Source: a virus (taxonomy: Duplodnaviria > Heunggongvirae > Uroviricota > Caudoviricetes). From it: 39,225 nt of DNA. Shown piece after piece: positions 6,362 through 9,233 of this stretch. The notes under the pieces were generated by a model. That model saw only the letters and a list, made by a program, of their open reading frames with translations. It ran no database searches and was not told the DNA's origin. The DNA lies in the IMG/VR virus record IMGVR_UViG_2574180019_000004, positions 1 to 39,225 of that record, one strand, 5' to 3'. Each line of letters starts with the position of its first letter. The first letter of the stretch is position 1. A program made the translations under genes and the position numbers.

Positions 6362-6416
6362 TTTCTGGAAAATCGCCTCATATATGAATCAGTAGATGAT
6401 TCAATTTAAAGCAATA

Positions 6417-6479
6417 TTACCCAACAGGTAAATGCACCCCATAGGTAACTATCCTTGATTTTTGTTACCTTATGGGTGA
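6417..6479. promoter_or_regulatory. Right operator region (OR-like), tripartite
   Basis: Perfect TTACCcaacaGGTAA 6417-6431; variant cACCccataGGTAA 6435-6448; imperfect TTACCttatgGGTgA 6465-6479; lies between repressor and cro-like starts. Confidence 0.6.
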
Positions 6480-6515
6480 ATATTTATTATCTGAAATAAA
6501 TATCAGGCAATAGCT

Positions 6516-6746
6516 ATGAGCGATAACGGACATTTCGATTTCAAAAAGCACTGGCTTGCACTTACTCCGGATGAGCGTGAAGCCTTCGCACAGGAAGCCG
6601 GAACGACGAGTCACTATATCCAGACTCACTTAACAGGTAAGCGCAAAATGCCAGGTAAAGTATTGATGAATGGGCTTTTTAAAGCCTGTAAATCAAGACA
6701 ATGGTTGCGCTCAAAAGCAGAACTGGCATACTTCTTCTACTCATGA
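6516..6746 (+). CDS. Cro-like small DNA-binding regulator
   Basis: 76-aa basic protein divergent from repressor; HTH-like segment EAGTTSHYIQTHLTGKRKMPGKVL. Confidence 0.6.
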   Translation: MSDNGHFDFKKHWLALTPDEREAFAQEAGTTSHYIQTHLTGKRKMPGKVLMNGLFKACKSRQWLRSKAELAYFFYS

Positions 6747-6767
6747 TATCCAGCCACAACCCTCTGT

Positions 6768-6791
6768 AGACCGCCATCCGGCGGTCTTTTC
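6768..6791 (+). terminator. Rho-independent terminator after cro-like gene (tR1-like position)
   Basis: agaccgcc-atcc-ggcggtct followed by tttt. Confidence 0.65.
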
Positions 6792-6896
6792 ATATCTATT
6801 CGCACCTCAAAGGTAATAAAAAACCAAATCTGGTTGATCTTTTTTTTGTGTCAGCACAAAATAACCGTAATCCCAATACTAATAACAGGGCTTACC

Positions 6897-7097
6897 ATGG
6901 AAATCATTACACGTATTGATGCCGCAAATCGCGGACTTAAACGCTACTACACCGGAAAACCATGTAAGCACGGACATGACAGTGAACGCTGGGTTTACAA
7001 CGGACACTGTGTTGAGTGCACCATGGAATCAAACCGTCGCATCAGGGCAGAGATTAAGCAGATCATGATTAATTCCTCCCCACAACATTCAAGCTGA
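6897..7097 (+). CDS. Small zinc-finger protein (C-x-H-x-H ... C-x2-C), cII-position hypothetical
   Basis: MEIITRIDAANRGLKRYYTGKPCKHGHDSERWVYNGHCVEC; start chosen at internal ATG; variant operator gcACCtcaaaGGTAA at 6802-6816 upstream. Confidence 0.45.
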   Translation: MEIITRIDAANRGLKRYYTGKPCKHGHDSERWVYNGHCVECTMESNRRIRAEIKQIMINSSPQHSS

Positions 7098-7112
7098 TAG
7101 CGGAGATTAATC

Positions 7113-7928
7113 ATGAGCAGACATGCAACAGATTGGGCCTGGGAGACAGATCCAGGTAGCTCGTCATTAAAGCTCATACTGCTCTCGATGGCTGACAGAG
7201 CCGATGAATATAACCTCTGCTACCCCAGCATAGAACGCCTCGTTAAAGACACTTGCCTGAATAAAAAAACCGTGCAGGCCGGGCTTATATCGCTCATGAA
7301 AATGGGGCTTATTTCAGATACCGGAGAGAGAAAGGGAGCGACGAAAAGAGTGCGGGTTTTCTCTCTTAATATAACCAAAAACGGGAACATTAAAGGCAAC
7401 CGGGAAGGGAGCAATGAACCCGAAAACGGTAATGTTACCGAAAACGGGAATATACCCAAAAACGGGATGTTGAATGATCCCAAAAACGGGATGTTGAATG
7501 ATCCCAAAAACGGGATCCAGAACCAGTCATATAACCAGTCATTTAACCAAGAGAGGGAGAGCAGGACAAAAAGCGGGGATTCTGTGCCTCATGACCCCGG
7601 CGCAAACAACGCCGTGATGAATAACTTTGTTCCTCCTGGTGGGCCAGGGCAATTAGGCAAATTTGTCATGCATGAACAATGGCAGCCATCAGATGACTTT
7701 CTTCGGAAAAGCTCCTTGCAGGGGATCTACCTGGACAGTCTGCCAACGGCACAGGAACTTGCAGAGTTCAGAATTTACTGGATGGCTGAGGGTAAGGCAT
7801 ACCATCAGGCACAGTGGGAGCAGAAGCTGGCAAGGCGGCTGCAGATTAGCAGACAGAAGCAATCAACATTACCTGATAACAACGTTCCGCACTGGAACAG
7901 CCCTGAAGCGTGGGAGGATTTCTTGTGA
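7113..7928 (+). CDS. Replication initiator (lambda O-like) containing internal iterons
   Basis: N-terminal winged-helix-like region (LKLILLSMADRADEY...TVQAGLISLMKMGLI); internal ENGN/KNGM repeats encoded by DNA iterons; followed by P-like gene with GTGA overlap. Confidence 0.65.
   Translation: MSRHATDWAWETDPGSSSLKLILLSMADRADEYNLCYPSIERLVKDTCLNKKTVQAGLISLMKMGLISDTGERKGATKRVRVFSLNITKNGNIKGNREGSNEPENGNVTENGNIPKNGMLNDPKNGMLNDPKNGIQNQSYNQSFNQERESRTKSGDSVPHDPGANNAVMNNFVPPGGPGQLGKFVMHEQWQPSDDFLRKSSLQGIYLDSLPTAQELAEFRIYWMAEGKAYHQAQWEQKLARRLQISRQKQSTLPDNNVPHWNSPEAWEDFL
7374..7517. repeat. Iteron array (candidate origin of replication) inside O-like gene
   Basis: Six copies of CCnAAAACGG(G/T)AA at 7374, 7419, 7438, 7455, 7479, 7503, including perfect 24-bp tandem cccaaaaacgggatgttgaatgat x2; followed by direct repeat aaccagtcat(a/t)taacc. 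Confidence 0.7.
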
Positions 7929-8710
7929 ACAACGTTTTTACCGCGATACAAAACCGTGACGGAGAAGCCCTTTCTCGCATGTCAGGTTATGAGCATCAGT
8001 ACGTCAACAATGACAATGTGGTGAACATGTCAGCAGAGAGGCTTGTTGATGCCCTTTTCAAACAGCTGAAACAACTGTTTCCGGCGGCAGTGGTAACCAA
8101 CCTGAAGACGCCAGAGCAGGAAGTTGCTGCAAAACAGCAGTGGATTGCTGCGTTTGCCGAAGGGGGAATACGTACCCGTGAACAGGTTTCTGCTGGTATG
8201 CGCCACGCCCGCGCCAGTGAATCTCCGTTCTGGCCGTCGCCAGGGCAATTCATCAAGTGGTGTAAAGACAGCAAGATGGTTCTTGGCGTCACCATTGACG
8301 ATGTGATGGCGGAGTTTCACCGGTACAGCAAGGAAAAAAGTTTATATCCTGGTGGTCCCGAAAGATTCCCGTGGCGGCATCCGGTTATGTACTGGGTCGT
8401 ATGTGATACACGCCGTGCAATGTATCAGCGCCAGCTTAGCGAGATTGAGGTTGAGAAACACGCGCGCAGGCTGCTCGATGATTGGGCGAAAAAGGTGGCT
8501 TCCGGACAGCAGATACCCGATCCGGTGATCAGCATACAGGCAAAGCCAGAGCCCATGAGTACACCTCCGGACACAGGGAGAGACGTTTACCATCCACCAG
8601 GGCGAAGTTTCGGGTGCATGCCTAACGCCGCCACCCTTGGGGGAATAACACCGGCGCAGTGGCTGATGGAGGAATACAGGCGGGGAAAGGCGGCAGGATT
8701 TATCAAGTAA
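7925..8710 (+). CDS. Replication protein P-like (DnaB helicase loader)
   Basis: Matches remembered lambda P segments (SPFWPSPGQFIKWCKD vs lambda RPFLPSPGQFVAWCRE; MRHARAS vs MRVARRQ); GTG start 7925 after GGGAGGA. Confidence 0.85.
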   Translation: MNNVFTAIQNRDGEALSRMSGYEHQYVNNDNVVNMSAERLVDALFKQLKQLFPAAVVTNLKTPEQEVAAKQQWIAAFAEGGIRTREQVSAGMRHARASESPFWPSPGQFIKWCKDSKMVLGVTIDDVMAEFHRYSKEKSLYPGGPERFPWRHPVMYWVVCDTRRAMYQRQLSEIEVEKHARRLLDDWAKKVASGQQIPDPVISIQAKPEPMSTPPDTGRDVYHPPGRSFGCMPNAATLGGITPAQWLMEEYRRGKAAGFIK

Positions 8711-8747
8711 TACCAGCGCGATAGCGCATTTTTTTACGCCTCAATAA

Positions 8748-8824
8748 TTACCTATGAGGTAACAAAATATTCTAAGCTCTATTGATTTTGTGTCTTATGT
8801 GGTTTTTAATTACCTTAGAGGTAA
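8748..8824. promoter_or_regulatory. Two perfect operator palindromes upstream of accessory/late operon
   Basis: TTACCtatgaGGTAA 8748-8762 and TTACCttagaGGTAA 8810-8824 (second overlaps RBS of gene at 8828); ATGTGGTT motif at 8797. Confidence 0.6.
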
Positions 8825-9172: not shown

Positions 9173-9233
9173 ATCGACGATCTTTTTAGTTATCAATGTA
9201 ATCAATAAGTTATGTGGATAAGCGAGGGTAAAG

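Follow-up and report, generated by a model that had tools for sequence, protein, structure and literature searches.

A probable replication origin of diverged lambda type inside the initiator gene of a phiV10-like phage

Where do phages of the phiV10/epsilon15 type begin to copy their DNA? The question is raised by the replication initiator gene in IMG/VR virus record IMGVR_UViG_2574180019_000004, whose whole 39,225-bp stretch was analysed here and is called the window below. Between the coding parts of its two domains, this gene contains short direct repeats that could be the sites of an origin, control sites of the initiator, or nothing more than the code for a repetitive linker. The window comes from a phiV10-like Escherichia coli phage (Uetakevirus, epsilon15-type), and its initiator gene is 97-99% identical to those of phiV10, phiv142-3 and PAS61. 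No origin or repeat feature is annotated in the phiV10 record, and the searchable literature on phiV10 or epsilon15 origins and on the motifs described below yielded nothing relevant. Our analysis indicates that positions 7374-7580 are very likely the vegetative replication origin of this phage, located within the stretch of the initiator gene that codes for the linker, with iterons that the initiator would bind. The case for a diverged lambda-type origin is computational and is built on what was established here: repeats that are unique in the genome, the domain architecture and synteny, family-wide DNA conservation and remote homology to lambda O. From these we infer binding, the unwinding site, helicase loading and transcriptional activation.

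Allowing at most one mismatch, the motif CCNAAAACGGKA occurs six times in the window, always on the plus strand, with starts at 7375, 7420, 7438, 7456, 7480 and 7504 and start-to-start distances of 45, 18, 18, 24 and 24 bp. All matches are confined to 7375-7515 with no other in the 39,225 bp, and shuffled sequence gave a mean of 1.14 scattered matches and never six. Tandem Repeats Finder reports an 18-bp unit in 2.8 copies (7418-7467) and a 24-bp unit in 2.6 copies at 100% identity (7455-7516), the latter being the perfect tandem duplication of the original prediction, and it detects no second repeat cluster elsewhere in the window. The prediction had also described six copies of CCnAAAACGG(G/T)AA; the number of copies stands, while the trailing AA belongs to copies 1-3 only and copies 4-6 read GGGAT instead. 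The iterons are symmetric around their A-tract, with the dyad CCG-AAAA-CGG in iterons 2 and 3 and ATCCC-AAAAAC-GGGAT in iterons 5 and 6. Among 78 near-identical phiV10-like prophages, collected by a three-sequence profile search and used for copy-number statistics and not for diversity, there are 4-9 iterons (mode 6) and 1-3 copies of the 12-mer that follows them.

As predicted, the repeats lie inside coding sequence and encode a repetitive linker: all six fall in one frame of the open reading frame (ORF) at 7113-7928 and are translated TKNGN, PENGN, TENGN, PKNGM, PKNGM and PKNGI, or (T/P)(K/E)NG(N/M/I). The third positions of the four core iteron codons are almost invariant between copies and the first positions vary (T/P, K/E). 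The codons are disfavoured ones, since proline is CCC in all four of its copies (7% genome-wide) and glycine is GGG in five of six (16% genome-wide). With six copies in a single frame, the window alone cannot separate constraint on the DNA from constraint on the peptide, and the argument rests on relatives.

These relatives were seven phages (PPompW, Vibrio phage Her, Edwardsiella phage GF-2, Acinetobacter phages AP22 and Ab105-2phi, Moraxella phage Mcat8 and Burkholderia phage Bcep176) and about 22 prophage loci from a bacterial scan with one genome per species, spanning Enterobacterales, Pseudoalteromonas, Acinetobacter, Desulfovibrio, Sphingobium, Zoogloeaceae and Methylotenera. At these loci, about 30 in all, no intact homologue of the N-terminal domain is without direct repeats, and three to eight of them stand immediately after that domain, at gene nucleotides ~270-450. 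The reading frame of these repeats is not constant. ACCCAAAAACGGGA is translated PKNG in the window and TQKR(E/D) both in PPompW and in copy 1 of GF-2, the first iteron of Vibrio phage Her reads DPKTE and its remaining ones PENG, and the Bcep176 units, 17 and 22 bp apart, occupy frames 2, 1, 1 and 2. Since one DNA motif is thus translated in more than one frame, the constraint acts on the DNA. The dyad, in turn, is kept by paired changes in its arms (TCCCAA/TTGGGA, ACCC/GGGT, CCCCC/GGGGG, GTACC/GGTAC, GTCGGA/TCCGAC and GTGCCA/TGGCAC). The most aberrant arms occur in Sphingobium, Zoogloeaceae and Methylotenera, which also lack the near-invariant DTGERKG wing of the domain and depart from the others where the recognition helix begins. 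SPN1S, Tyrion and TL-2011b, which share the C-terminal domain and have another N-terminal domain, contain neither the iterons nor the 12-mers, so both elements travel with the N-terminal domain. In lambdoid phages, ori specificity travels with this domain. Judged by these comparisons, the repeats are sites on the DNA that move and change together with the N-terminal DNA-binding domain, as iterons should.

A second element directly follows the last iteron. Tandem Repeats Finder describes it in the window as a 12-bp unit, AACCAGTCATAT, in 2.4 copies at 94% identity (7521-7549), which agrees with a second short direct repeat in the original prediction; to this we add a third, degenerate unit, TAACCAAGAGAG (7544-7555), giving unit starts of 7520, 7532 and 7544. 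At 25 of the 30 loci, three or more tandem units built on a GAAYC core stand directly 3' of the last iteron on the coding strand, and iterons and 12-13-mers are there kept together in one orientation. Elsewhere in these loci, over 189 kb searched on both strands, this GAAYCWRYCA array has no match. The consensus of eighty units is a-n-a-GAACC-w-r-t-C-A, and their period is 12 in 28 cases, 13 in 20 and 11 in 6; at 19 of the 25 loci the units occupy at least two frames, being read for example as NQS and EPV. The block is still present in members with altered iterons and wing motif, and its presence does not depend on the C-terminal domain, which is DnaT-like in just two of ten genome loci tested, lambda-O-like in GF-2 and unrecognised elsewhere. 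The block is the most conserved DNA element of the whole family, more so than the iterons. A family-wide GAAYCWRYCA repeat adjoining iterons has not previously been described.

The AT content of the block stays at ~0.5-0.7 irrespective of host GC content (a modest AT excess of +0.056, positive in 19 of 24 loci), which makes it the 36-bp window of lowest stability in the GC-rich genes of Sphingobium and Zoogloeaceae. The block lies at or beside the stability minimum in GF-2 and at loci L110 and L112, and is not outstanding in AT-richer hosts, including the window (z = +1.5). The highest 200-nt purine fraction of the whole 39 kb begins at 7377 (0.675, against a mean of 0.523 and standard deviation of 0.047); purine-strand bias is a property of the unwinding region of lambda (PMC5043065). 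We consider the 12-mer block a candidate element for unwinding or single-strand capture. Whether the GAAYCWRYCA array is a sequence-specific site of strand opening and single-strand capture, like the 13-mers of oriC and RK2, we can suggest only tentatively and by analogy; its reader would be a conserved part of the initiator or the helicase-loading machinery.

One member of the family has an unusual gene structure. At a locus from a Granulosicoccaceae metagenome-assembled genome (L108, 1501-2333), the initiator is split, and the first ORF, of 149 residues, comprises the N-terminal domain and an iteron-encoded tail and stops at an in-frame TAG inside an intact 12-13-mer block, and a second ORF, of 118 residues, restarts at 1977. 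Either the initiator is split in nature and its origin lies partly between genes, or the assembly is wrong.

In the initiator protein, Pfam recognises a winged-helix HTH_36 domain at residues 18-67 and a DnaT domain at residues 184-252; the N-terminal domain ends at about residue 87 and the C-terminal one begins at about residue 184, and the repeats sit exactly between, encoding the linker. The N-terminal domain, presumed to be the iteron-binding module, is of an MSxxATxWAW...PS...KT...DTGERKG type, and family alignments give relatives 41-87% identity to it. It ends just before the first iteron, and the same is true of the lambda-O-type family. When 24 such domains were aligned with eight lambda-O-type N-terminal domains in hhalign, the match had a probability of 92% and an E value of 5.5e-7 over the helix-turn-helix and wing; an earlier hhalign comparison of a shallow profile with lambda O alone was insignificant (probability 2%), significance being reached only with 24 against eight sequences. 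The window initiator and lambda O also both match phrog_678 and phrog_345 with their N-terminal parts, and a PDB profile search with the domain returned weak winged-helix matches only. The profile comparison thus points to the N-terminal domain as a remote homologue of that of lambda O.

The C-terminal domain matches E. coli DnaT chains 4ou6, 4ou7, 6aep and 9zbt (E about 1e-20), and is presumed to contact the loader or helicase, or unwound DNA. The homology is confined to initiator residues 180-265 and DnaT residues 85-170 and does not extend to full-length DnaT, the N-terminal half being HTH_36 instead. The database name 'primosomal protein I' arises because the C-terminal 70-85 residues match the single-stranded-DNA-binding domain of E. 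coli DnaT, which bears that name. DnaT's own N-terminal half is missing from the initiator, with a winged-helix origin-binding domain in its place, and whereas DnaT is a replication-restart factor, the genomic role of the initiator is origin-specific initiation.

If the repeats were merely a low-complexity, slippage-prone peptide linker (xKNGx, NQS) without DNA function, one would expect what is seen in the window, where all copies are in frame and spaced by multiples of three, where the copy number of the 24-bp unit varies freely between close relatives, and where the encoded stretch is predicted without structure, in an AlphaFold model of low confidence throughout. This is nevertheless very improbable, as it is contradicted by the other-frame readings in relatives and by spacings of 17, 22, 11 and 13 nt; synonymous sites are fixed and rare codons used, compensating changes in a dyad are meaningless for a peptide, and at L108 the block is intact despite its in-frame stop. 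We also find it unlikely, although less so, that the iterons are initiator sites for autoregulation or copy control (by titration, handcuffing or a transcription roadblock to the 3' half of the initiator gene and P) and not a start site, with unwinding elsewhere, for example in the AT-rich intergenic stretch 6800-6890 or at 6460-6480. Plasmid iterons do double as control elements (PMC5043065), and the iterons of the window have no strong adjoining AT tract, the least stable DNA within 6400-8800 being 6461-6480. Against such a role, the iterons and the 12-13-mers are kept as a pair in one orientation at 25 of the 30 loci, in GC-rich hosts no stretch of the gene is less stable than the 12-mer block, and the window has no other repeat cluster. 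The layout is moreover that of the lambda, P22, HK97 and phi80 origins, which have an equivalent block after the iterons that is unwound in lambda (PMC5043065, PMC7466680).

A further explanation concerns the 12-13-mer block, which could be a boundary sequence for swapping N- and C-terminal modules by homologous recombination and not an origin element. The block does lie exactly at the junction of a conserved N-terminal module and variable C-terminal domains (DnaT-like, lambda-O-like or unrecognised). However, it is a tandem array of fixed 12-13-nt period and orientation, it has been kept from Enterobacterales through to Sphingobium, Methylotenera and Desulfovibrio, with flanks that can no longer be aligned, its AT content is held at ~0.5-0.7 against host GC, and lambda-type origins have an analogous ACAAAAGACA block in the same place. 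We regard this explanation as distinctly improbable.

Several observations weigh against an origin at 7374-7580. There is no marked AT-rich tract to the right of the iterons, as 7516-7560 is 55-61% AT and the 12-mer block 57-61%, with a duplex instability of only z = +1.5, and, as noted above, the stability minimum of the region lies elsewhere. Cumulative GC skew has its minimum near 7000, just where transcription changes direction, and so is not independent evidence for an origin. The six copies in the window share one frame, and copies 4-6 arose by duplication only very recently. The initiator is not a member of Pfam Phage_rep_O (PF04492), matching HTH_36 and DnaT only where lambda O gives Phage_rep_O; the prediction of an O-like initiator is therefore upheld for its position and architecture but not for its family membership. 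An AlphaFold model from a shallow alignment had a pLDDT (predicted local distance difference test score) of 34 and was unusable, and experimental work on any member of the HTH_36/iteron/GAACC family was not found in the searchable literature. Even so, genomic context, position, frame shifts among relatives, dyads and the remote homology of the N-terminal domain back, by computation, the original idea of an iteron-type origin mirroring lambda ori.

For an origin at this site we propose the following mechanism. Dimers of the winged-helix N-terminal domain would bind the six dyad iterons (core CC[C/G]AAAACGG, with a central A-tract) and form a bent complex like the lambda O-some. The bound complex would destabilise the adjoining 12-mer block and purine-rich tract (7520-7580), one strand of the block would probably be captured sequence-specifically, and the DnaT-like C-terminal domain and the lambda-P-type protein would deliver host DnaB to the opened block. 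Transcription from the pR-like promoter would cross the site and may activate the origin, as in lambda.

The coordinates of the origin and its surroundings are collected in the table.

Table. Features of the putative origin and the early operon in the window
Feature	Position	Strand	Evidence
pR-like sigma-70 promoter candidate, 5' of cro-like gene	6462..6490	+	consensus scan, 9/12 matches; weak evidence
Intrinsic terminator (tR1-like), between cro-like gene and replication genes	6768..6787	+	rho-independent terminator annotated there in phiV10
Replication initiator gene, 271 residues	7113..7928	+	phrog_1032 'replication initiation protein' E 1e-108; Pfam HTH_36 and DnaT
N-terminal winged-helix (HTH_36) domain, coding part	7113..7373	+	Pfam, family alignments, profile-profile match to lambda-O-type N-terminal domains
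Iteron 1, ACCAAAAACGGGAA	7374..7387	+	motif match
Iteron 2, CCCGAAAACGGTA, dyad CCG-AAAA-CGG	7419..7431	+	motif match
Iteron 3, ACCGAAAACGGGA, dyad CCG-AAAA-CGG	7437..7449	+	motif match
Iteron 4, ACCCAAAAACGGGAT, dyad CCC-N6-GGG	7454..7468	+	motif match, Tandem Repeats Finder
Iteron 5, TCCCAAAAACGGGAT, dyad ATCCC-N6-GGGAT	7478..7492	+	motif match, Tandem Repeats Finder
Iteron 6, TCCCAAAAACGGGAT	7502..7516	+	motif match, Tandem Repeats Finder
Three 12-nt units, GAACCAGTCATA, TAACCAGTCATT and TAACCAAGAGAG	7520..7555	+	Tandem Repeats Finder; family-wide GAAYCWRYCA block
Purine-rich tract, top strand, right of repeats	7545..7579	+	purine-fraction scan
DnaT-like C-terminal domain, coding part (single-stranded-DNA-binding fold)	7662..7868	+	Pfam DnaT E 1e-15; E. 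coli DnaT chains
Lambda-P-type helicase loader gene	7925..8710	+	Pfam Phage_lambda_P PF06992 E 1.5e-56; phrog_109

The genes around the origin are those of a lambdoid early-right operon, in which the initiator stands where O would be. A minus-strand repressor with two helix-turn-helix motifs is followed by the cro-like gene, the terminator, a small conserved gene, the initiator and, directly 3' in this rightward operon, the lambda-P-type loader, in synteny with the phiV10 annotation. The start of the loader was taken from that annotation (a GTG overlapping the initiator stop), the longest ORF beginning at 7910. The location of the pR-like candidate agrees with the divergent repressor/cro arrangement, and transcription from it would cross the origin. 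The small gene between terminator and initiator (6897-7097, plus strand) encodes a 66-residue protein of phrog_1081 that has no Pfam match and is kept in phiV10 and epsilon15 (p42/p40); its Cys/His pattern, KPCKHGHD...NGHCVEC, is suggestive of a zinc-binding motif. Two minus-strand candidates were rejected. Terminator-like hairpins with T-runs at 7463-7506 are by-products of facing iteron arms (GGGAT-N8-ATCCC, then TTTTTGGG), and while they would oppose antisense transcription through the origin, they are probably incidental; the 95-residue ORF at 7220-7507 is an artefact of the repeats.

Some relatives deserve mention in their own right. Moraxella phage Mcat8 (L008, 1801-2052) has at the homologous position three 84-bp repeats, each with several AAAGGGGGTACAATTTTGCA-type sub-repeats, followed by two copies of TAAACCTATTAA, an expanded and diverged form of the two-part layout of iterons and 12-mers. 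Initiators that combine a DnaT-like C-terminal domain with another N-terminal domain have mid-gene repeats of their own, namely GTCCGC/GCGGAC in SPN1S (L010, ~1340-1470), GTAACGC in TL-2011b (L012, ~1330-1440) and three copies of GGATCAG in Tyrion (L011, ~1619-1660). Common to these is TAAAACCCCACACATA just 5' of the part coding for the C-terminal domain, which appears as TAAACCCCACACATA in PPompW (L003, ~1985-2010) and in Tyrion only as TAAAACCCC. These may be other types of origin with a common right-hand element. The 138-kb Vequintavirus record of Escherichia phage BP9 (L002, PP488543.1) holds, at 133.4-137.5 kb, a complete phiV10-like immunity/replication module that is 96% identical, and PH444 (PP350014.1, 115 kb) is named alongside it for such a module; in a record classified as a virulent Vequintavirus of large size, such a module points to chimeric assembly or to read-through from a contaminating prophage. 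Finally, the one hint of replication driven by an initiator and loader of the HTH_36/iteron family comes from an 8,461-bp circular E. coli 'plasmid' (NZ_CP148379.1, L122), which carries dicA-like and cro-like genes, ydaT, a PPompW-type initiator, P, hokD and rem, together with four other listed genes (HNH endonuclease, ATP-binding protein, DUF5677 protein); no replication genes are listed beyond the PPompW-type module in the PLSDB gene table, which is incomplete. In make-up this record is like a naturally occurring mini-replicon of the lambda-dv type, or like a piece of prophage circularised in error.

An origin inside the initiator gene in the manner of lambda, with an iteron core like that of phi80, is known already, and to a specialist it is fairly ordinary and unsurprising. 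What departs from lambda is the distant N-terminal domain, the DnaT-like C-terminal domain and a sequence-conserved 12-13-mer array in place of the AT-rich tract. Our reading places the origin of the phiV10/epsilon15-type phages, which serve as O157 reporter and typing phages, in a gene whose phiV10 record leaves it unannotated, and it shows that the database name 'primosomal protein I / DnaT' misleads, the protein being an origin-specific initiator. The iterons predict replication incompatibility groups and offer targets for ectopic-ori inhibition of these phages. More broadly, the N-terminal domain, its cognate iterons and the GAACC 12-13-mers form a widespread cassette shuffled onto different helicase-recruiting C-terminal domains, giving a natural series for the co-evolution of initiator specificity with its sites. 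The family-wide 12-13-mer element is the part most worth attention, since it may be a sequence-specific unwinding element of phage origins and can be tested as such. If it is one, then, taken with the ACAAAAGACA repeats, the 'AT-rich region' in phage origins of lambda type would generally be a family-specific repeat code and not merely easily melted DNA, conserved from Enterobacterales to Alpha- and Betaproteobacteria and Desulfovibrio.

The closest comparison is with lambda ori. Both origins lie inside the initiator gene between the parts coding for N- and C-terminal domains, so that the repeats encode the linker; both have a second repeat block after the last iteron, a purine-strand bias and remotely homologous N-terminal domains, and both belong to a rightward early operon after a cro-like gene, with a P-type loader gene immediately 3'. 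The lambda iterons annotated in NC_001416, TCCCTCAAAACGAGGGA and its variants, have short G/C arms around an A-tract, and the dyads are alike (TCCCTC-AAAAC-GAGGGA in lambda, TCCC-AAAAAC-GGGA in the window). The window differs in its HTH_36 N-terminal domain, where lambda has Phage_rep_O, in its DnaT-like C-terminal domain, which is not that of lambda O, and in having six iterons of 13-15 bp where lambda has four of 18-19 bp. Six is also the number in Stx phages, against four in lambda (PMC7466680). The 40-bp AT-rich tract of lambda is replaced by three GAACC-type 12-mers of ~60% AT, and the right-hand palindrome was not recognised in the window. The repeat block after the iterons is the region unwound experimentally in lambda (PMC5043065, PMC7466680). 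The GF-2 initiator, a hybrid with an HTH_36-family N-terminal domain, iterons and 12-mers followed by a lambda-O C-terminal domain and a lambda-like GAGAATTCTGACGAATCCTCAGA palindrome, shows that the 12-mers stand exactly where lambda has its AT-rich unwinding region. That region has a conserved sequence of its own in canonical lambda-O-type origins: ACAAAAGACA is repeated right after the last iteron in lambda (L013), mEpX1 (L123), P22 (L125), HK97 (L126), FBPa42 (L128) and IPK (L129), from E. coli to Paraburkholderia hosts.

The origin of phi80 (gene 15 / gene 14) has the same layout and four iterons, TTCCCGAAAACGGGAA, whose core is shared with the window and nearly identical to CCCGAAAACGGTA, ACCGAAAACGGGA and TCCCAAAAACGGGA, and a GAACA-type repeat, CAAGAACAAGAACAGT, follows them. 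Their spacing is 21 bp, however, against 18 and 24 bp in the window, the initiators have no pairwise similarity (BLASTP E 23), and gp15 is of Phage_rep_O type with a lambda-like C-terminal part and palindrome. No DnaA box (TTWTNCACA) occurs within 1.6 kb of the iterons. The nearest perfect one, TTATCCACA at 9213-9221 on the minus strand, is the only one in the replication region and lies 1.7 kb to the right of the origin, and the number of DnaA boxes in the window is not above chance. Unlike the iteron plasmids of the RK2, F and pPS10 type, the window has an intragenic origin and iterons spaced without helical phasing. Plasmid iterons bind monomers (PMC5043065), whereas the dyad symmetry of the window iterons implies binding of dimers. 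What RK2 oriV with TrfA, F with RepE and oriC do have in common with the window is an array of initiator sites followed by three to four tandem repeats of 12-13 nt; those of RK2 and oriC are specific in sequence, and the initiator binds them in single-stranded form (PMC4980987).

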